This document shows positions 6,624 to 42,258 of a stretch of DNA of 63,938 nucleotides, in pieces. Location: contig JBAWYM010000002.1 in the NCBI GenBank assembly GCA_037143575.1, positions 1 to 63,938 on the forward strand. The letters are read 5' to 3'. The position numbers were made by a program, and so were the translations under genes. This DNA comes from Candidatus Peregrinibacteria bacterium (GTDB lineage: Bacteria > Patescibacteriota > Gracilibacteria > Peribacterales > Peribacteraceae). The stretch's first letter is position 1. Each line of letters opens with the position of its first letter. The notes below the pieces were generated by a model, which did not search any database, was not told where the DNA came from, and was given only the letters and a program-made list of their open reading frames with translations.

Positions 6624-8309
6624 TCAATATACTTCGGTGAGGTAGCAGGTTTTGCAATAGATCTTCTCCGGTCTCTCTGGCGCGAAAGCTGCCTCAATAT
6701 TCTTTCCACACTTCGTGCAATTTCGCTTCCAGAGCCTTTTCGGTTTTCTCATCGTGAAGCGGTCAATATAGCGCCGGTCCGGACAGCGCCGCGGTAATGG
6801 AAGCCCGTTGCGCCGGTAGAAATCAAGCTCCTGCCGGATGATGCGGAAGGGCTTGCCGGTCACTTCGCATCGAATGGCGGAGTGGAGAATTTCATCGGTG
6901 ATTTCGGTGATGCGCTCCGGAAGATTCCCCGCATCAATAATCATTCCAGTTTCGGGCTGAGGCGGTTCGTAATTTGACCAAGGGATTTTTTCTTCCTGAG
7001 CTTGTTCTTTGGTGATCGGAAAATACTCCAGTGCCCGGGATTGGTTGTATCCAAATGGAGAAAACGCCATCGGAAAGAATTCTCCGTACTCTCCGGTGCG
7101 ATTCATGTGATCAATAATTTTCGGCACGAGCGCTTCGTACTCTTCTTTCGAATATTGCTTATTCAGAATACAGAAAGAGCCCTGATTGATACCGCAGCAG
7201 CCAAAGAGATCGTGGGAGTTCTGGGTACAGTCGGAGTACAAACAATTCTTGCAGTCGTAGGTGAAGTGACAGGCGATGCACTGGAAGGCATGGCTGATCG
7301 CGTGGCATTCATACATCAGCTCCGCCCAGCCGACGTGGTAGACATCCAGCGAGTCCTTGGCATCGATCCCGTCGAAGCAATGGCGGCAGTCGCGCATGCC
7401 GATGGAGTCGAAGCAATTCTCGCAGTCTTTGGATGTGAAGAGGAGATCGCCGCTGCAGCCCTCGGATTGCAGCTGAAAGATGGCAGGATGCATCGCGCGC
7501 CGTTCTTTCATGATGCAGTATTCCTCGCGAAGTTTCCGGAGAAGGGAATGGGAGAGCGGAAGGATCTCTGCCATGCGCTTGCGATACTCCTCCGGCGTGA
7601 GCTGCTCATTCTGGATGCAGTACTGCTTGTTCCTCAAGTTGCAGCTGAGGAAACAGTTCTTGCAGCCTGAGCAGTCGAAGCAGAACCACACCTCCTCACA
7701 CCTCCGGATGAATTCACAGAAGAAGGCCCGGTAACTGCCCCAGGCGTAGTACGTCTCATAGCAGAGCTCGCAGCCTTCCAGGAGGTACGAGCAATCGACG
7801 CAGTCCCGACAGTGCTCCACGATCCAGTCGCTGTAATAGATATCTTCACTCTCGAAGGTAATCGCGGACCAGTAGCAGTTCTTATTCTTGCCGGAGTGGT
7901 TGGTGAATGCGCTATTTTCGCTCTGTTTGTTGACGAGGGCATTGCGGGGGACCGCGAGCTGCAGTTCCCGGAACTGATCGAAGAAGGGGCGGCTGAAGTC
8001 GAAGTCGCGTCCGTAGGACCTCGCATCCCATTTGTCCGACCACCAGATTTCCTGATCGTAGACTTTGAATGGCGCATCCGGCGGGTACATCGAGATGATG
8101 GATTTTCCGCTGAAGTCGCATGTACGGCGGTACAAGTTCCGTTCATTCCTCCAGACGAGGCGGCGTTGCTGACGGCAGTCGGGACAGTGCGTTGGTGGAG
8201 GGATAGGGAATGTCCTTCCCGCGACCATTGGTGAGACGCGATCGAGGAGCGAGGTGTCTTTTGCATCGATCGTGAATGGTTGCCGGCAGTGGACGCAGAT
8301 CTTTTCCAT
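6624..8309 (-). CDS. large cysteine-rich protein with N- and C-terminal zinc ribbons (uncharacterised family, paralog A)
   Basis: The 561-aa ORF has about 40 Cys by hand count. It has 'CVHC...CPDCRQQRR' at the N-terminus and 'CTKCGK-x17-CKTCY' at the C-terminus, with many CxxC pairs in the middle. It is a paralog of 37372..39039. Confidence 0.8.
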   Translation of the reverse strand: MEKICVHCRQPFTIDAKDTSLLDRVSPMVAGRTFPIPPPTHCPDCRQQRRLVWRNERNLYRRTCDFSGKSIISMYPPDAPFKVYDQEIWWSDKWDARSYGRDFDFSRPFFDQFRELQLAVPRNALVNKQSENSAFTNHSGKNKNCYWSAITFESEDIYYSDWIVEHCRDCVDCSYLLEGCELCYETYYAWGSYRAFFCEFIRRCEEVWFCFDCSGCKNCFLSCNLRNKQYCIQNEQLTPEEYRKRMAEILPLSHSLLRKLREEYCIMKERRAMHPAIFQLQSEGCSGDLLFTSKDCENCFDSIGMRDCRHCFDGIDAKDSLDVYHVGWAELMYECHAISHAFQCIACHFTYDCKNCLYSDCTQNSHDLFGCCGINQGSFCILNKQYSKEEYEALVPKIIDHMNRTGEYGEFFPMAFSPFGYNQSRALEYFPITKEQAQEEKIPWSNYEPPQPETGMIIDAGNLPERITEITDEILHSAIRCEVTGKPFRIIRQELDFYRRNGLPLPRRCPDRRYIDRFTMRKPKRLWKRNCTKCGKNIEAAFAPERPEKIYCKTCYLTEVY

Positions 8310-8531
8310 AAGGAAACAGTAGGAGTTCTTTACGGATTTCCCTAACAGGGATTCTCATGAGTTGCTCACTCTTCTACAAATACCTATGATCAAAATAGGA
8401 CTTTCTATTTACAATACGCAGTTCTATATTATTGCGTAGATGAGTATCTACATATGAACCCTCACCCTACCCTCTCCCCCTGCGGGAGGAGAGGGAGCGC
8501 GGGCCGGCTCTCCCGTGAAAAAGAATGCATT

Positions 8532-9308
8532 ATGATTCCAGAACTCGAACAATTCGGCTTTACCCGCAACGAAGCGAATGTGTATCTCGCGGCGCTGAAG
8601 TTAGGGGCGACAACGGTTTCCAAACTTGCGAACGCTACAGGGCTCAATCGCATTACCGTCCACAGTATCGTGGAGAAATTTGAGGCGATGCAGCTTTTGC
8701 AAAGCAGTCTCGAAGGCAAGCGTCGTCGAATTTCCGCAGCATCTCCGGGTCGTCTGAGCGTGATTCTCGATATGCGCGAGGATGAACTCCTTCAGAAGAA
8801 GCGTGCGCTCTCCCGGGTTCTTCCCTCCCTAGACGATGCCTTCCGCATGGCGCAACGGGGCATTCAGATCCGCTCGTTCCATGGCGAAAAAGGGTACGAG
8901 CAAATTTGTCTGGATGTGCTTACGTCCAAAACGGAAACACTGGAATACGCCAATATCGAAGCACTGATGTCGGTGATTGGCCCGTACGTCGCCAGCGATT
9001 ACCTCCCCACGAAATATCGCCTGCAGCTTTCCACGAAGTTTCTGTATCTCGATACGCCGGGGGCACATCAGTACATCCAGAAAGCCTATCTCGATCCGCC
9101 TGAGGCTTCTCCCATGGAAGCGAAATTCATTCCTTCCGATGAATTTCAGCTGGATTCCTTCTTCGTCATTTACGACGATAAGCTCGCCATCCTCACGCCA
9201 TCGACCATGGATGGTGTCATCATCCAGGATAAGGGCATGTACGAGGCATTGCGATCATTTTTTTACTTTGTGTGGGGGCGTGCGGGGGAGGCGGTGGGGA
9301 ATCGATGA
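8532..9308 (+). CDS. TrmB-family transcriptional regulator
   Basis: 'FGFTRNEANVYLAALKLGATTVSKLANATGLNRITVHSIVEKF' is a TrmB-type winged HTH. I chose the start at ATG 8532, because the 8454 start translates a hairpin repeat. Confidence 0.7.
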   Translation: MIPELEQFGFTRNEANVYLAALKLGATTVSKLANATGLNRITVHSIVEKFEAMQLLQSSLEGKRRRISAASPGRLSVILDMREDELLQKKRALSRVLPSLDDAFRMAQRGIQIRSFHGEKGYEQICLDVLTSKTETLEYANIEALMSVIGPYVASDYLPTKYRLQLSTKFLYLDTPGAHQYIQKAYLDPPEASPMEAKFIPSDEFQLDSFFVIYDDKLAILTPSTMDGVIIQDKGMYEALRSFFYFVWGRAGEAVGNR

Positions 9309-9380
9309 AGAGGACTTCTCTCCTTCATACCTTGATGATCCACTCTTGCAGAGGACAACACAAACGGTTACACTGTGTGT

Positions 9381-9662
9381 ATGCGCAAAAAATCCGACGC
9401 CAATCTCCATATTCGTCTTCCTGCCAAGCTCAAGCGGGGCGCAGAGAAGGTCCTCGAAGCATTGGGGCTGGATTCCTCATCGGCCATACGTCTCTTTTAC
9501 ACACAGTTGACTCTCCAGCAGACTCTGCCGTTTCCCCTACCCAAGCTTCGTGTGATGTCACCCCGCACACACAAAATCGTTTCCGCTGCCCTCAAAGATG
9601 ATGTCATTGGACCATTTTCTACTCCGGAAAATGCCCTGAAAGCTCTCTATGCTGCAACATGA
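9381..9662 (+). CDS. dinJ: RelB/DinJ-family antitoxin
   Basis: 'ANLHIRLPAKLKRGAEKVLEALGLDSSSAIRLFYTQL' is a DinJ-like ribbon-helix-helix. It lies directly upstream of, and overlaps, the YafQ-like gene. Confidence 0.65.
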   Translation: MRKKSDANLHIRLPAKLKRGAEKVLEALGLDSSSAIRLFYTQLTLQQTLPFPLPKLRVMSPRTHKIVSAALKDDVIGPFSTPENALKALYAAT

Positions 9663-9918
9663 ATTCACCCGCACATTTTTGAAAGACATGAAACGGTGGC
9701 GCAAGGCAGGGAAAAGCATGCAACCCTTTGAAGATTTTCTCCTCACCATCAGAGAGACGTGGCCACCTGCGCCAAAGTATGAAGCCCATGTACTTGTAGG
9801 TTCGCTCAGTGGTATTTGGGACATTCATCTGCGGCAGAATTGGATCGTTCTTGCACGGTTTGAATCCGGGGTTGTTCGGTTTTTACGAATGGGTACACAC
9901 GCGGAATTAAGCTTATAA
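9649..9918 (+). CDS. yafQ: YafQ/RelE-family mRNA interferase toxin
   Basis: 'FLKDMKRWRKAGK...HVLVGSLSGIWDIHLRQNWIVL...LRMGTHAEL' matches the YafQ pattern. It overlaps dinJ by 14 nt. Confidence 0.7.
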   Translation: MLQHEFTRTFLKDMKRWRKAGKSMQPFEDFLLTIRETWPPAPKYEAHVLVGSLSGIWDIHLRQNWIVLARFESGVVRFLRMGTHAELSL

Positions 9919-10002: not shown

Positions 10003-10251
10003 ATGATCACCCGGACAATCGGCATCAAAGAATTTCGGCAGAACATCACGAAGCTCAGTAAGCAGGCAAAGAAGGAGAAGATGTGCTTCATTGTCATGAA
10101 TCACCAAGTGCCCATGGGGCGCTTCGAGCCGATCGATGAGGATGAGCTGATCCTGGAAAAGTTCTGGCCGGAGATCCAGAGAAGCCTTGAGCAGGCAAAG
10201 GAAGGGAAAACGATTTCATCGGCTGAACTTCGCAAACGTTTAGGATTATAA
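10003..10251 (+). CDS. Phd/YefM-like antitoxin
   Basis: The 82-aa ORF has 'IGIKEFRQNITKLSKQAKKEKMCFIVMNHQVPMGRFEPI'. It lies 8 nt upstream of a RelE/ParE toxin gene. Confidence 0.55.
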   Translation: MITRTIGIKEFRQNITKLSKQAKKEKMCFIVMNHQVPMGRFEPIDEDELILEKFWPEIQRSLEQAKEGKTISSAELRKRLGL

Positions 10252-10258
10252 TTAGGCC

Positions 10259-10525
10259 ATGCGTGTTCGCTATACCGATGAAGCAGAGCTCTGTATGAAG
10301 CGCCTTCCCAGGCATATTGCTCGCAGGATTGCAGACAAAATCGACTGGTATGCGGAGCAGAAAGTACCATTATCTTTTGCACGTCGGTTATGGGATCCGG
10401 TTGATACCCTCTTTCGTTTCCGCATCGGCGACTACCGCGCAATTTTTCGCTTGGAGGGATGCACCCTAGAAATCATCCTTATCCTTACAGTGAAGCACAG
10501 GAAAGAGGTGTATAGGGGTGTGTAA
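10259..10525 (+). CDS. RelE/ParE-family toxin
   Basis: 'FRFRIGDYRAIFRLEGCTLEIILILTVKHRKEVY' is the classic RelE/ParE C-terminal motif. Confidence 0.7.
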   Translation: MRVRYTDEAELCMKRLPRHIARRIADKIDWYAEQKVPLSFARRLWDPVDTLFRFRIGDYRAIFRLEGCTLEIILILTVKHRKEVYRGV

Positions 10526-37371: not shown

Positions 37372-39039
37372 TTAGTTCGCTGTTTCGGCTATGCACCTCT
37401 CGCACCAAACCTGCATATCCGTATCCGCCGGGTACGTGGTGATCATGTCGCTGCCACACTTGGTGCACTTCCCCGTGCGCAGTTTGCAGGGATTCTTGGC
37501 CTTCAGCCGTGCATCGTATCGGCAGTCTGGGCAGCAGACCGGGAGCGGGATTTTCCTCTTACGGTAGACCGTCAGCTCTTGAGCGACGATCTTGTAATTC
37601 TTCCCGCATGTCGTGCACCTGAGCAGTTCCTTCGTGACGTCATCCTGCACCTGGTCGATGGTATCGGGGACAGAGTAGATCTGATCTTTGGGATTGCGGG
37701 GCTCATCCTGGTGCCAACGGTAACCACGCTCTTTTGCCTGTGCTTCGGTGAGCGGATACTGTTCCTGTGCCGCCGTTTCGTTGTAGGCGAAGAGCGCGCA
37801 GGAAGCCGGGAAGAATTCTCCCCACTCTTTGGTCGATCGCATCTGTGCGATAATTTTGGGCAGGAGGGCGGCATAGTCTTTTTCGGAATACTGCGTATTG
37901 AGAATGCAGTGAGACGCAGACTTGAGCCCAACGGAGCCGAAGATATCTTTCGAGGAATTGATGAAGAGGGAATAGCGAATCTGCTGGCAATTTGATGTTC
38001 GGCCACAGAATTGCACATCGTAAGAGGCCGCCCCGGAAGTTGTTTCGTAGAGCAGCTCGCTGTTTCTCCCGCCCGTATAGGCATCCATCGAATCGCGGTA
38101 CAAATTCACATCCCACAAGTACCGTCCGTCCGAACTGTCGAGCGTACCGAAGCATTGATGACAATTTTTGCAGTGCAGGAGGTTGTCGCCGGTGACGTTT
38201 TCACATTGGGCGTTCGTCAGTGCCCTTCGTACCGCCTTCTTGCGAATATCCCGGTACATTTTCTCCGCCAGTTCCACCATATGTCGTGAGCCGAAGTTGA
38301 ACTCCTTCAGTCGTGCTTCGTATTGTTCTTTGGTGAGCTGTTCATTGAGGAAGCAGAAGCGCTTATTGCGAAGGTTGCAGCACATGAAACAGTCCATGCA
38401 GGAGTGGCAATCGAGGAGGAATGCCGATGTCGCGCAGTGCGAGCAGGAGAAGAGAAAGCGGCTATCCTGGCATTCCACGCAGTCGACGCACTCGTAGAGG
38501 AAGGAGGATTTCTTGACCTGTGTACAGTCCACACAATCGTTGCTCCGGCTGCCGTGATAGGTGTAGAGCATGTCCTGCGATTGATGGGTGCGGGAGCAGA
38601 GGTAGCAATTGCTGCACTCGCGCATGTCGCTGTTGAATTCGCAGTTTTCGGAGAGCTCGACGCGCAGTGATGGAAGTGGGATTTCGAGGAGGAAATTCCT
38701 GAACTGTTCGAAAAATGGTTTGGAAAAATCGTATGGTCGGCCGTAAGCGAATGGGTCAAATTTATCACCGTACCAGTAATCCTTCTCGCAGACCTTGAAG
38801 GGTGAATCCGGGGAGAAGACCGAGACGATATCCTTGCCGGTGACGTCACATTTGCGGCGGTAAAGATGATGCTCATTGCGAAAGGCCATGCGGCGCTGTT
38901 GGCGACAGTCGGGGCAGAGGGTGGGCGGCGGGAGCGGTTCTTTCTTCCCCGCAATCATTGGCGAAAGCTTCTCGAGGAGGGCGAGATCATCGGGGAGGAT
39001 CTCGAAGGAGAGGCGGCAGTGGGGGCAGGCTTGGGGCAT
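37372..39039 (-). CDS. large cysteine-rich protein with N- and C-terminal zinc ribbons (paralog B)
   Basis: The 555-aa ORF has 'CPHCR...LSPMIAGKKEPLPPPTLCPDCRQQRRMAFRNEHHLYRRKCD...PFFEQFR'. This aligns with roughly half of its positions identical to 6624..8309. The C-terminus has 'CTKCGS-x17-CERC'. Confidence 0.8.
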   Translation of the reverse strand: MPQACPHCRLSFEILPDDLALLEKLSPMIAGKKEPLPPPTLCPDCRQQRRMAFRNEHHLYRRKCDVTGKDIVSVFSPDSPFKVCEKDYWYGDKFDPFAYGRPYDFSKPFFEQFRNFLLEIPLPSLRVELSENCEFNSDMRECSNCYLCSRTHQSQDMLYTYHGSRSNDCVDCTQVKKSSFLYECVDCVECQDSRFLFSCSHCATSAFLLDCHSCMDCFMCCNLRNKRFCFLNEQLTKEQYEARLKEFNFGSRHMVELAEKMYRDIRKKAVRRALTNAQCENVTGDNLLHCKNCHQCFGTLDSSDGRYLWDVNLYRDSMDAYTGGRNSELLYETTSGAASYDVQFCGRTSNCQQIRYSLFINSSKDIFGSVGLKSASHCILNTQYSEKDYAALLPKIIAQMRSTKEWGEFFPASCALFAYNETAAQEQYPLTEAQAKERGYRWHQDEPRNPKDQIYSVPDTIDQVQDDVTKELLRCTTCGKNYKIVAQELTVYRKRKIPLPVCCPDCRYDARLKAKNPCKLRTGKCTKCGSDMITTYPADTDMQVWCERCIAETAN

Positions 39040-39115: not shown

Positions 39116-39475
39116 CTACAGATGCTCCGCAGGCTCTTGCATTACCGTGGCGGTAACAGGAGCGGGGGCCGATGGGATTACGGTAACTGTTTCCGTGTCT
39201 GATGACGACGCTCCTTTGAACTTGGCTACCACTATTGTCGCACCGCCGCCGGCCAGAAGGCCCTGTATGAGATTATCGACGGGGGCAGAATTCTTGAGGA
39301 GGACGAAGCCGAGGACGCCTCCGATGAGGAGGGAGGTGAGCTGCTTCATGCGGCTGCGCTCGATGGGGAAGGCCGAGAAGATCGCCTCGCAGAGGAAGAA
39401 CGTGAGGACGGCGATGTACGCCGCATCACCGTTGAGGTACTTGCCGAGGACGCTGGTGAGGAGGGAGGAATCCAT
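39116..39475 (-). CDS. small membrane protein (holin-like by context only)
   Basis: The 119-aa ORF has 2-3 hydrophobic segments and a Ser/Thr/Pro tail. It lies immediately downstream of the amidase gene on the same strand. Confidence 0.4.
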   Translation of the reverse strand: MDSSLLTSVLGKYLNGDAAYIAVLTFFLCEAIFSAFPIERSRMKQLTSLLIGGVLGFVLLKNSAPVDNLIQGLLAGGGATIVVAKFKGASSSDTETVTVIPSAPAPVTATVMQEPAEHL

Positions 39476-39536
39476 GACGGAGGTTGGAAAGGTTTGGATG
39501 AAGTTCGAAAGGCCTGAAAGGTTTACGATTACTCAA

Positions 39537-40355
39537 TCATCCCTGTATCCCATGATGACTGCGCAGGTGCCGCGCGAGGACGGTTGCCAGTTCCGCACGC
39601 GAGACCGGTCGCTCCGGGTGAAAGAGGCCGTCTGCCGACATCTGGAAGAGCCCCTCGCGGAGGCAGAGCTTCACATCCTCGCGGTACCAGGCGAGCGCGG
39701 GGAGATCGGTGAAGGACGTGGGTGGAGTGGCGGGGCCGTGGAGAGGTGGGAGGGAGCATTGCACGCGGATTGCCCTGTGCAGTCCGTCGACGATTTTCTC
39801 CCGCAGAGCGGCATCCGTCAGAACTTTGGCGTCGAATTCATTGGAGAGGAATCCTGCCTCGAAGAGACATCCGACGCACAGGGTGTCATCGAGGATCCCG
39901 AGTCTTCCCCAGCGGTTGTCGGAGGAGATGAGCGCGGGTCGCGAACGCGGTGGGAGGCCGGTGGTGGTGGCGACCTGCTCGACGAGCGTCTTGGCGAAAT
40001 CGATCATCGTCGGGAACCTGGGGGAGTACCACGCTTCCAGCCCCCGAGCCGCTGGATCGGAAGCGGCATTCACGTGGATCGACAGGAGTAGCGCGTCCTC
40101 AGACTTCCACTGGTTCTCCTGACAGAGGATATTCACTTCTTTGATGTGATCGATGAGCATCAGCCGCTCATCCACACTCACTTTGATGATTTGTACCCCC
40201 CGAAAGTCCGGGTCCGCCGACAATTGCCCAGCCAACGACTGCGCCATCGCTACCACTTCCTTGCGCTCGGTCGTTCCGTTCCCCGCTGCACCATTATCGA
40301 TGCCCCCCGTGGGTCCCAGTCCGTGGCCGGCATCGACGAAGATTGCTTTGATCAT
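39537..40355 (-). CDS. N-acetylmuramoyl-L-alanine amidase (Amidase_3) with a C-terminal SLH domain
   Basis: The Amidase_3 motifs are 'IFVDAGHG', 'LLLSIHVNAA', 'GLEAWY' and 'CLFEAGFLSN'. The C-terminus 'FTDLPALAWYREDVKLCLREGLFQMSADGLFHPERPVSRAELATVL' is an SLH motif. Confidence 0.8.
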   Translation of the reverse strand: MIKAIFVDAGHGLGPTGGIDNGAAGNGTTERKEVVAMAQSLAGQLSADPDFRGVQIIKVSVDERLMLIDHIKEVNILCQENQWKSEDALLLSIHVNAASDPAARGLEAWYSPRFPTMIDFAKTLVEQVATTTGLPPRSRPALISSDNRWGRLGILDDTLCVGCLFEAGFLSNEFDAKVLTDAALREKIVDGLHRAIRVQCSLPPLHGPATPPTSFTDLPALAWYREDVKLCLREGLFQMSADGLFHPERPVSRAELATVLARHLRSHHGIQG

Positions 40356-40636: not shown

Positions 40637-40723
40637 GCCGAGGTGGCGGAATTGGTAGACGCGCCAGCCTTAGGAGCTGGTCCGCTTATGCGGTTGGAGG
40701 TTCGAGTCCTCTCCTCGGCACCA
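40637..40723 (+). tRNA. tRNA-Leu (anticodon UAG), class II with long variable arm, CCA encoded
   Basis: I folded the cloverleaf by hand. The acceptor is GCCGAGG/CCTCGGC, the anticodon stem is CCAGC/GCTGG with loop CTTAGGA, the variable stem is CCGC/GCGG, and the T-arm is GGAGG-TTCGAGT-CCTCT. The 3' end is ACCA. Confidence 0.9.
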
Positions 40724-41274: not shown

Positions 41275-42258
41275 TCAGATCTTCTCCGTCCCCATCGCCA
41301 CCCGATCCGCCCGGGCGTTCGTCTCGTCGCGGACTCTGGCTGCCTCCCGCTCGGCCGCGCGCAGTCGTTCCTGGCCTTCCTTTTCGATAGCGGCGAGGCG
41401 CATCCGTTCCTCCAGCGCCGCATCATCGCGTTTGCGGCGGCAGAGGAGCTCGGCTTCCTGAGAGTGCCTTGTGCCTTCGGTATCTGTCTCCTGATTCTTT
41501 CGGCGGTATTCCTGGACGATCTTCTCGGTGCTCTGGCGCTCCTCCTGTTCCACTGAACGGACTTCCATAGAGCGGGCGGGTTCCGGGAGAGACTCTGCCA
41601 TGTTCTTCTTTCGGGAAAAATCACTCATGTTCATTTGCTTCTTCCCCTGTTCCTCCATCATCAATTTCGCCTTCTTCGCTCTCGCCTCTTCCTGTGCTTC
41701 CTCTTTGAGTCGGTGCTCTTCGCTGTCCGCATCGGCACGTTTCTTTCTTGAGAGAGCAGCTGCCTTCTCCCGTTCCTTGCGCTCCCACACGTCGATCTCC
41801 AGCCGCGCGCGGGCCATCGTCCGGTCGCTCTCCTGACGCGCTTCGTCGCGCATGCGCTCGGCGTCATCTTTGCGTTTCTGCAGGGCAGTGATGTGCGCGT
41901 TCGACGCCGCCATTTCGTCCATGTATTCCTTCTGCTTTTTCTCCTCCTGATGATGCTTCTCTTCCTGCTCCTTCCAGTACTGCACTTCTTCGGCCTTTTT
42001 CTTCTTCATCTCTTCGACTTCTCGCTCATTCACCGTGCGTTGCTCTTTCCACTTTTTCCCCGCTGCGACACTCTCTCGTTCCTCTTGTTCCCCTTGGAGG
42101 ATGGCTTCATGATCGCGTCCAAGCTGTCTGGCCTCTTCGGCCTTGTGCTCTTTACGTTTCTCCTCCACTCGCAAAAGATCCTCCTCACGCTTCAGGCGAT
42201 TCTGCTCCTCGAGCTTGTCCCTGAGGAGACGCGCCGGGTCGGGAGGTGGGGAGGACAT
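41275..42258 (-). CDS. hypothetical highly charged (E/K/R-rich) coiled-coil-type protein
   Basis: The 327-aa ORF has low-complexity charged heptad-like composition throughout. Confidence 0.5.
   Translation of the reverse strand: MSSPPPDPARLLRDKLEEQNRLKREEDLLRVEEKRKEHKAEEARQLGRDHEAILQGEQEERESVAAGKKWKEQRTVNEREVEEMKKKKAEEVQYWKEQEEKHHQEEKKQKEYMDEMAASNAHITALQKRKDDAERMRDEARQESDRTMARARLEIDVWERKEREKAAALSRKKRADADSEEHRLKEEAQEEARAKKAKLMMEEQGKKQMNMSDFSRKKNMAESLPEPARSMEVRSVEQEERQSTEKIVQEYRRKNQETDTEGTRHSQEAELLCRRKRDDAALEERMRLAAIEKEGQERLRAAEREAARVRDETNARADRVAMGTEKI

Follow-up and report, generated by a model that had tools for sequence, protein, structure and literature searches.

A cysteine-lined solenoid protein with zinc-ribbon modules at both ends belongs to a multi-paralog family of the Patescibacteria

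The stretch of DNA analysed here (referred to as the window; 63,938 nucleotides of a Candidatus Peregrinibacteria bacterium, GenBank assembly GCA_037143575.1, contig JBAWYM010000002.1, positions 1 to 63,938) encodes on its minus strand, at 6624-8309, a cysteine-rich protein of 561 residues, named copy A. This soluble, cytoplasmic protein belongs to an ancient family of many paralogs; among the sequences sampled, the family occurs only in the Patescibacteria, also called the Candidate Phyla Radiation (CPR). The order of its parts is zinc-ribbon module, solenoid with cap helix, solenoid with cap helix, and zinc-ribbon module. Eight of its cysteines (5/8/42/45 and 531/534/552/555) are predicted to make up a structural Zn(Cys)4 site in each of the two terminal modules, and about 25 further cysteines line the narrow solenoid core as a cysteine ladder and are not ligands. 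This structural and evolutionary part of the account is held with high confidence. The most likely role of copy A would be that of a non-enzymatic recognition or adaptor protein, and the best overall explanation, joining this role to the architecture, is given slightly less than an even chance. In the literature searched, neither the protein as a whole nor its genomic system or distribution has been described; the recognisable parts are zinc ribbons and a beta-solenoid like that of a beetle antifreeze protein.

Architecture of copy A and of its paralog in the window

Copy A, its domains and its paralog (copy B) were located as follows, with the basis of each assignment in brackets (ORF, open reading frame; AF2, AlphaFold2).

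6624-8309, minus strand: copy A gene, member of the CPR-restricted family of Cys-lined solenoids (ORF list; 561 aa plus stop; 100% self-match, paralog match, homolog search, AF2 model)
7935-8309, minus strand: N-terminal module, residues 1-125 (homologous to the C-terminal module, E 6e-11)
7602-7934, minus strand: solenoid 1, residues 126-236 (DSSP, autocorrelation, composition and independence tests)
7494-7601, minus strand: helical hairpin (TPEEY... helices), residues 237-272 (model helices 239-249 and 254-271; variable in the family, entropy 2.9-3.1)
7095-7493, minus strand: solenoid 2 and cap helix, residues 273-405 (duplicate of solenoid 1, less regular; lower model confidence)
6882-7094, minus strand: conserved EYGEFFP...SPFGYN block and acidic variable linker, residues 406-476 (alignment; charge)
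6627-6881, minus strand: C-terminal module, residues 477-561 (PF23477 E 2.4e-5, TIGR04272, Cys covariation, tail statistics)
37372-39039, minus strand: copy B, ancient paralog, 555 aa, 41 Cys, atypical tail (...ETAN) (tblastn, own AF2 model)

The reading frame of copy A was unbroken, and the protein contained exactly 40 Cys (7.1%), 14 His and 12 CxxC pairs, in agreement with the initial annotation of this DNA, which had described an intact 561-aa ORF with about 40 Cys. Every motif quoted in that annotation was found once and at the expected place, with exact x33 and x17 spacings. The motifs started at residues 5 (CVHC), 42 (CPDCRQQRR), 166 (HCRDCVDC), 179 (GCELC), 209 (FCFDCSGCKNCFLSC), 227 (NKQYC), 294 (KDCENCFD), 306 (RDCRHCFD), 343 (QCIACH), 351 (YDCKNCLYSDC), 383 (NKQYS), 488 (FRIIRQELDFYRRNGLPLPRRCP), 531 (CTKCGK) and 552 (CKTCY), and the aromatic/acidic block spanned 59-114. 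The annotation had also listed the radical S-adenosylmethionine (SAM) motif, a signal peptide and a transmembrane segment as absent, and the same was observed: a motif scan of the copy A sequence detected no CxxxCxxC, no transmembrane-like segment was found (top 19-residue Kyte-Doolittle mean, 0.81), and a signal peptide is absent because the N-terminus opens straight with a zinc ribbon (CxxC knuckle). The whole protein is near-neutral, with a pI of about 6. The public gene call for copy A (entry P0001) is 488 aa long, starts from M74 and leaves out the N-terminal zinc ribbon; the same start-site miscall is probably shared by many homologs of 488-503 aa (P0012, P0018, P0029, P0030 and others).

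Comparison of copy A with itself by BLASTP revealed an internal duplication, in which residues 36-84 align with 503-551 (E 6e-11) and residues 166-250 with 310-399 (E 8e-10). The ancestral terminal module is a finger pair, in which a zf_Tbcl-type ribbon (CxxC...F.I...EL.FY...P.P..CP.CR) and an Arg-rich helix are followed by a CxxC-x17-CxxC treble clef. The PF13451 (zf_Tbcl) identity of the first finger in both modules is backed by homologs, namely P0254 for the N-terminal finger and P0188 for the C-module finger. The N-module of copy A retains an intact Cys4 ribbon (C5/C8/C42/C45) followed by the Arg-rich helix (CPDCRQQRRLVWRNER), and invariant basic residues stand right after the zinc knuckle (R46, R49, R50, R54, R57, R62). 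Its second finger is degenerate, with C64 alone left and S/D/I at 67/85/88, and the module also carries the conserved WWSDKWD...FDFSRPFFDQFR block. The first finger of the C-module is likewise degenerate (C481, T484, C509, R512), and the treble clef is intact (C531, C534, C552, C555). Two further ancestral Cys4 sites (C-S-D-I and C-T-C-R) have therefore decayed in copy A.

The C-module of copy A has a charge of +13 and ends in a fixed-length tail (...CYLTEVY). Across the family, the chain stops exactly 6 residues past the final CxxC in 91% of members, and about 78% have [V/I]-Y as their last two residues, a pattern that the tail of copy A fits and that of copy B does not. Median charges are +2 for the N-module, -5 and -3 for the solenoids, -7 for the linker (386-476) and +6 for the C-module.

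The AF2 model of copy A, built on a 67-sequence alignment, reached a predicted local distance difference test score (pLDDT) of 84.3 and a predicted template modelling score (pTM) of 0.83, with low confidence only over residues 280-360 (pLDDT 47-62). DSSP assigned the pattern EEEE--E--E-- twice over residues 205-232, with bridges every 3 residues and strands at 205-208, 217-220 and 229-232; the coil therefore has 12 residues. At about 12 residues per coil, every third position of solenoid 1 faces inward and is mostly Cys, Ser or Leu. Among 227 members, Cys in solenoid 1 showed a strict period-3 autocorrelation, positive at multiples of 3 and negative at all other lags, and hydrophobic residues peaked at lag 12. 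Cys is possible at each third position of residues 133-231, with two one-residue register shifts. Solenoid 1 ends with an invariant NLRNKQYCIQN cap (N234), and the ILNKQYSKEEY block in the solenoid 2 region is the most conserved block of the family (entropy 1.27). This is an unusual build without a match among solved structures: a cytoplasmic solenoid whose coil has 12 residues, with a ladder of cysteines and a zinc-finger module at either end.

The conserved paralog reported in the initial annotation was recovered at 37372-39039. Copy B shares 38% identity with copy A over the full length, was the sole paralog found by tblastn of the window, and has three intact Cys4 sites. Its independent AF2 model (pLDDT 82.3, pTM 0.84) has the same topology as that of copy A, with beta-bridges 5-7 residues apart across the same region.

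Predicted metal sites, core cysteines and comparison with known folds

The gain and loss of cysteines was analysed in an alignment of 481 distinct full-length members. Terminal cysteines were kept or lost as whole Cys4 sets, and central ones varied independently. At the facultative terminal sites, positions 67/85/88 either all had Cys or all lacked it (r 0.99-1.0), with Cys there, together with C64, in 27% of members. Positions 484 and 512 covaried at r 0.97, and the correlation of either with 509 was about 0.7; this second site was Cys, together with C481, in 31% of members. All four Cys of these two sites were present at frequencies of 0.27 and 0.30, compared with 0.02 and 0.04 expected under independence. 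The constitutive terminal sites had all four Cys in 85% of members and, for the last finger, in 95%, and positions 8 and 45 covaried at r 0.85. The occupancy of central Cys was 20-80% per position, and the best pairwise r was 0.4, mostly at lags 12, 3 and 9. All-Cys coils occurred at frequencies of 0.53, 0.04 and 0.02, compared with 0.51, 0.05 and 0.03 expected under independence. In-register solenoid positions held C (49%), S (16%) and L (12%), followed by V, K, A, I and T; none of His, Asp and Glu ranked in the top 12, and out-of-register positions were most commonly Y, N, D, F, E and R. Because His, Asp and Glu are not among the commonest replacements and occupancy is independent, the central cysteines are assigned to the packing of a buried core and not to ligand sets.

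The zinc ribbons that the initial annotation had placed at both ends are borne out by these data, since these cysteines are conserved and come and go as full quartets. Its further suggestion, a multi-Zn or Fe-S scaffold, stands at the ends, where the Cys4 sets are all-or-none, and falls for the central ~250 aa, where the Cys are independent core residues of period 3. A multi-metal (Zn or Fe-S) scaffold or a metal/thiol store, in which stacked central CxxC pairs would coordinate ions or clusters, is thus very improbable. The count of 40 Cys and 12 CxxC pairs speaks for it, as do the family-wide richness in Cys (median 37, range 24-50), the coil 213/216/219/222, all Cys in 53% of members, and the single CxxCxxCxxxC string of copy A at 213-223. 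That string, however, is without Pro, its C223 is Cys in 2% of members, and CxxxCxxC is lacking; Ser, Leu, Val, Ala and Ile take the place of central Cys, and His, Asp and Glu are not among the most frequent replacements; per-coil occupancy equals independence with covariation of at most 0.4, whereas the terminal sites are all-or-none; and the conserved paralog-specific surfaces described below would be unexpected in a bulk store. A radical SAM or ferredoxin-type Fe-S protein was rejected on the missing CxxxCxxC and on the Pro-less string with its poorly kept C223, and a metallothionein-like or stacked-Zn scaffold on the S/L/V/A/I replacements, the joint occupancy at independence and r of at most 0.4. 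For annotation practice, the family is a clear case in which high cysteine density does not mean a metal cluster.

Database searches reached only the end of the protein. In Pfam, the only match of copy A was PF23477 (zf_Tbcl_2) at residues 528-557, with 24.4 bits against a cut-off of 27, and in NCBIfam it was TIGR04272 (CxxC-x17-CxxC), with 18.2 bits against a cut-off of 36; many copy A orthologs carry a precomputed PF23477 match. PF13451 did not match copy A at E up to 10, and homologs such as P0025, P0036 and P0042 do match it. PADLOC returned no match for copy A or the family, and in PHROGs the central region weakly matched phrog_15341, a family of unknown function (E 0.003). PDB sequence and profile searches detected LIM-like similarity to the last finger only. 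Foldseek of the copy A model against the PDB gave nothing below E = 0.035, the top weak matches all being left-handed beta-helix enzymes (TM-score at most 0.14), and the copy B model had no match (best E = 2.9). Against BFVD, Foldseek gave only a small 'zinc-ribbon domain protein' and nothing significant.

The statement of the initial annotation that copy A could not be placed in a characterised family therefore holds, as Pfam and NCBIfam reach the last 30 residues only, below threshold, and Foldseek found nothing significant for either paralog; the profile and structure searches it had called for were run and gave no profile match across most of the length to any family of established function. 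In the literature searched, no characterised family, solved structure or paper covers more than these last 30 residues, and the family was not found in the CPR protein-family preprint, the Lipocone paper or the literature on its domain accessions and TrmB. The 'cysteine-rich proteins' of the Peribacter genome paper are a different set (580-3,860 aa, at least 56 Cys each, most with a predicted signal peptide), and the solenoid family is absent from Table S4 of that paper.

The terminal fingers are the part closest to known domains. The C-terminal finger of copy A has the exact CxxC-x17-CxxC spacing and the ...RPExVYCxxCY signature of zf_Tbcl_2/TIGR04272, and homologs match PF13451 with the first finger of their terminal modules, N- and C-terminal alike. 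For the CxxC-x17-CxxC domain, zinc binding has been shown in small proteins of Methanosarcina mazei (PMC12704099). However, the known zf_Tbcl and zf_Tbcl_2 proteins are small stand-alone domains of unknown function, whereas here two tandem pairs flank ~400 aa of unrelated solenoid and helices; moreover, half of the four sites are decayed in copy A, and its score lies under both curated thresholds.

For the solenoid, the nearest construction is that of the beetle hyperactive antifreeze protein TmAFP (PDB 1EZG), a right-handed beta-helix of 12-residue coils with a core of Cys, Ser and Ala (PMC8038014). The family shares the 12-residue strand period and the inward Cys/Ser pattern of period 3. TmAFP, however, is secreted, has a size of 8-12 kDa, one disulfide per coil and a TxT ice-binding face, whereas the family is cytoplasmic, with up to four Cys per coil mixed with Leu/Val, outer faces rich in Tyr/Asn/Asp/Phe, and flanking zinc modules. 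No sequence or Foldseek match linked the two, the outer positions are Y/N/D/F/E/R and not Thr, and no secretion signal was found; the likeness is taken as an analogy of construction and not as membership. The left-handed beta-helix proteins (GlmU, LpxD, gamma-carbonic anhydrase) were the top Foldseek PDB matches of copy A and share short six-residue strand-turn units, but their coil is triangular with 18 residues compared with 12 in the family. A left-handed beta-helix or hexapeptide repeat was rejected, given E of at least 0.035, TM-score of at most 0.14, a root-mean-square deviation of 10-17 A, no match of copy B and no Hexapep Pfam match. Pentapeptide-repeat proteins (Qnr, MfpA) are acidic non-enzymatic beta-solenoids that occur as many paralogs in some phyla and act by surface recognition or mimicry. 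They differ from the family in their 20-residue quadrilateral coil, their A(D/N)LXX repeat and the lack of zinc modules, and copy A has no Pfam pentapeptide-repeat match.

Distribution and evolution of the family

At least 7,497 homologs were detected, and the named ones were all 'hypothetical protein' entries from Peregrinibacteria/Peribacteria, Gracilibacteria, Nomurabacteria or the 'Patescibacteria group'. The observation as such is far beyond chance. An exhaustive profile search yielded 5,913 clusters at 50% identity, 2,500 of them with E below 1e-30, and nearly all were full length (540-580 aa). Relatives are encoded in at least 562 stretches of species-representative genomes, and the loci fetched from these (L numbers below) were Patescibacteria in 78 of 78 cases, covering also Abawacabacteria, Liptonbacteria, Paceibacterota, Minisyncoccia and metagenome-assembled genomes labelled Saccharibacteria. 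A tblastn search of 50,697 phage genomes and 72,556 plasmids found no match to the family, and a scan of IMG/VR gave one partial match at a contig end; on these results a mobile-element origin was ruled out.

Family genes form same-strand tandem arrays with short spacers, the largest being that of L025 (11 copies within 21.7 kb), followed by L042 and L057 with 10 copies each and L018 and L068 with 9 each; at least 18 copies were counted across two loci of one assembly (CAYWJA01). Five loci (L049, L050, L051, L072 and L077) showed in-frame UGA breaks under translation table 11 and 6-10 intact copies under table 25, L072 being CP060226.1, a complete genome labelled 'Candidatus Peribacteria'. In the code-25 arrays L051 8170-21304 and L072 3837-20514, members of the canonical type, which score about 700 against the profile, are interleaved one by one with those of a divergent subfamily (scores 220-300; frames of ~470-640 codons), which suggests a paired or two-type organisation. 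One homolog, P0265 (731 aa), has a GNAT acetyltransferase domain at the N-terminus of a family member; this single case, a real fusion or a gene-call artefact, is uninformative.

Tandem neighbours share about 44% identity, and in more than 50% of cases the similarity of a member to a protein from a different CPR class exceeded that to its tandem neighbours. Copy A itself is 69% identical to Peribacteria orthologs and 55% identical to a Gracilibacteria protein, compared with 38% to copy B. The paralogs are thus ancient. In the 56 sequences of the copy A orthogroup, entropy was 0.88 at outward solenoid positions, compared with 0.98 for the N-module, and family-wide the same outward positions reached 2.39 and were among the most variable. 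Orthogroup-specific conserved positions made up 21-26% of the solenoids compared with 2-3% of the terminal modules. Conservation within the orthogroup combined with family-wide variability indicates that the frame is shared, whereas the solenoid has lineage-specific surfaces that are selectively maintained. This pattern argues against an arms race and against bulk storage and favours a panel of specific binders.

Patescibacteria are tiny symbiotic bacteria with reduced genomes of about 1 Mb. Some of these ~1-Mb genomes give up to about 30 kb to the family, and the keeping of many copies by organisms that shed almost all else makes it likely that the family is central to their biology. It spans several CPR classes, is old and under purifying selection, and has been without annotation. 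The initial annotation had overlooked the internal duplication, the confinement of the family to CPR bacteria, its tandem arrays and its two conserved neighbours, which are described next.

Genomic neighbourhood and proposed role

Two features lie upstream of copy A in the window.

8454-9308, plus strand: TrmB-like winged-helix regulator, divergent from copy A (PF01978, E 4.3e-8)
8436-8451, no strand: palindrome resembling an operator, GTAGAT-GAGT-ATCTAC, located between the two divergent genes and 127 bp upstream of the start codon of copy A

The TrmB-like gene probably starts with the ATG at 8532 and not as early as 8454, since the resulting 258 aa match the length of its homologs. In a neighbour survey, in which ORFs within 4 kb of family genes were clustered, a TrmB-like (PF01978) neighbour was found at 30 of about 73 loci (39 genes), nearly always transcribed divergently from the first family gene and 80-350 bp upstream of it, the same layout as in the window. 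Copy B is without a TrmB-like neighbour. The TrmB-like protein had no recognisable sugar-binding domain and no close relative of solved structure. The motif GTAGA[AT]-N4-[AT]TCTAC had 8 matches in 1.37 Mb, compared with 0.35 expected, and 6 of them are located 127-230 bp upstream of the start of a family gene; the palindrome of the window is a symmetric variant of this recurrent GTAGAW-N4-WTCTAC. A second palindrome, TACGCA-N12-TGCGTA at 8415-8438, was not recurrent in other loci, unlike the first, and scans for sigma-70 promoters and terminators around copy A gave background levels.

The other recurrent neighbour was an ATPase of roughly 747 aa with matches to T4SS-DNA_transf, TrwB_AAD_bind, TraG-D_C and DUF87. 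This VirD4-like ATPase occurred at 20 of about 73 loci (22 genes, of which 20 were adjacent to and on the same strand as family genes), in Peribacteria, Gracilibacteria, Abawacabacteria and the Nomurabacteria/Minisyncoccia group. By a rough estimate, about 3 such genes would be expected by chance in 1.37 Mb (at ~2 per ~1-Mb genome) compared with 22 seen, the loci not being independent. No transmembrane segment was found in the ATPase; it scored far below all curated thresholds for coupling proteins, with weak matches to TraD, VirD4-like CD1115 and CedD, and it strongly matched phrog_5156, a phage family of unknown function (E 3e-72), as well as PADLOC mad8 (E 3.7e-15) and HerA models. Its N-terminal ~320 aa are unannotated (for example in L018 15137-17377 and L031 5987-8227). 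A survey of Patescibacteria counted 5,713 VirD4-like genes in 2,918 genomes, 148 of them near virB4, and its authors suggested possible exaptation to a different function (PMC12102498). The link observed here is a concrete testable lead on this puzzle of orphan VirD4-like genes.

ClpB, RF-1, ribosomal proteins, Ddl, GuaA and DnaK/GrpE were set aside as housekeeping synteny and not specific partners. No VirB4 or other part of a type IV secretion system (T4SS) was among the recurrent neighbours. Some arrays, in about 4 related loci only, lie directly downstream of an S4-rpoA-L17-L13-S9 operon. ORF6N-domain genes (KilA-N/antirepressor-like) were seen in or beside some arrays (L031 15089-15685 and 4 other loci), and a PaaX-like regulator was present near arrays in 4 loci.

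In the recognition or adaptor role proposed for copy A, the basic zinc modules and the fixed-length ...[V/I]-Y tail, common to all paralogs, would dock on a shared partner, most probably the orphan anchor-less VirD4/TraD-like ATPase encoded in many arrays, or else nucleic acid. The acidic solenoid surface, which differs among paralogs and is conserved per orthologous lineage, would bind a paralog-specific ligand, and the divergent TrmB-like regulator would control the transcription of copy A via the palindrome at 8436-8451. This mechanism, with copy A as an adaptor or client of the ATPase, is put forward tentatively. It could be extended to a larger picture, which we regard as doubtful, in which the arrays of ancient, sub-functionalised paralogs, the orphan anchor-less VirD4-like ATPase and the TrmB-like regulator make up an unrecognised Patescibacteria-wide cellular machine, a hexameric motor that uses, or acts on, 10-20 paralogous adaptors or clients. 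Docking on the motor would then fall to the shared zinc-finger ends, and the choice of different cargos (host or cellular proteins, or nucleic acids) to the solenoid faces specific to each paralog. If true, this would explain thousands of 'exapted' coupling-protein genes that lie away from type IV secretion loci.

Several observations weigh against the account given here. The window itself encodes no VirD4-like ATPase, and the ATPase lies within 10 kb at about a quarter of loci only, so the partnership may be facultative or a matter of synteny; the surveyed loci are, moreover, phylogenetically non-independent. No homology links the family to any activity, and there may be an unrecognised active site among the conserved polar residues (such as H401, E407, D92, D104, D172 and D212). 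As for the structure, solenoid 2 was modelled with low confidence, and the inward and outward assignment of solenoid residues rests on periodicity, DSSP and residue composition. The best-conserved coil, C213/C216/C219/C222, is all Cys in 53% of members, without co-dependence of its cysteines; it is the sole central candidate for a metal site, and metal binding could occur there.

Three further explanations can be set beside the adaptor reading. Nucleic-acid binding, by which the Arg-rich zinc-ribbon modules would hold DNA or RNA, either aiding a cytoplasmic DNA-translocating ATPase (for example on imported DNA) or as an RNA/DNA regulator, is rather unlikely. The invariant basic residues directly after the zinc knuckles (R46 to R62, listed above) speak for it, the ATPase is weakly similar to TrwB DNA-binding, TraD and DNA-translocating CedD proteins, and some arrays follow the ribosomal operon. 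The protein, however, is near-neutral and its variable, specificity-bearing part acidic, Foldseek detected no known nucleic-acid-binding fold with either model, and the adjacency to the ribosomal operon concerns about 4 related loci. Quite unlikely is a function as translocated effectors, recruited by the VirD4-like ATPase via the basic C-module and tail and exported, for example by a patescibacterial type IV system, into the host cell, where the variable solenoid would bind its targets. The resemblance to clients of type IV coupling proteins (T4CPs; VirD4/TraD) lies in the operon linkage, at family level, with a VirD4/TraG/TrwB-like ATPase (20 loci) and in the basic C-module (+6 median, +13 in copy A) with its fixed tail; the absence of a Sec signal and a repertoire of many paralogs that keep the frame and vary in the middle would also fit, and T4SSs are widespread in Patescibacteria, apparently not for conjugation (PMC12102498). 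Yet the ATPase is without the membrane anchor of true coupling proteins and far below every curated T4CP cut-off, neither VirB4 nor other T4SS genes lie near the arrays, the paralogs are ancient, under purifying selection and not fast-evolving, and tightly folded Zn-stabilised domains would be poor secretion substrates.

Least probable of all is an anti-phage defence or conflict system, in which diversified solenoid sensors would act with a HerA/FtsK-like ATPase under a winged helix-turn-helix regulator. The matches of the ATPase to PADLOC mad8 and HerA models point in this direction, together with the nearby winged helix-turn-helix regulators, toxin-antitoxin pairs and ORF6N genes and with a multi-copy family whose copy number varies between genomes. 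Against this, the family itself has no PADLOC match, its arrays are embedded among housekeeping genes, it is orthologous across classes, ancient, under purifying selection and not rapidly diversifying, and it is absent from the phages and plasmids searched.

The remaining window is an ordinary CPR chromosome (smpB, recR, AspRS, SerRS, UvrB, Mfd, PilB/PilC), and copies A and B are its only large ORFs with more than 5% Cys. Immediately downstream of the TrmB-like gene, on the plus strand, lies a type II toxin-antitoxin pair, a RelB antitoxin (9375-9662) with a YafQ toxin (9649-9918), followed by a second type II pair made of an unannotated 82-aa ORF (10003-10251) and a ParE toxin (10259-10525); ParE-like neighbours of family genes also occur in L033 and L038. 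Immediately upstream of copy B, on the same strand, are a small hydrophobic 119-aa ORF (39116-39475) and a cell-wall amidase with Amidase_3 and SLH domains (39537-40355), and copy B may be co-transcribed with these two (39116-40355, minus strand). A 327-aa ORF at 41275-42258 (minus strand), with an extreme Glu/Lys/Arg content and coiled-coil-like, had no Pfam match, and a tRNA-Leu is located near it at 40637-40723.

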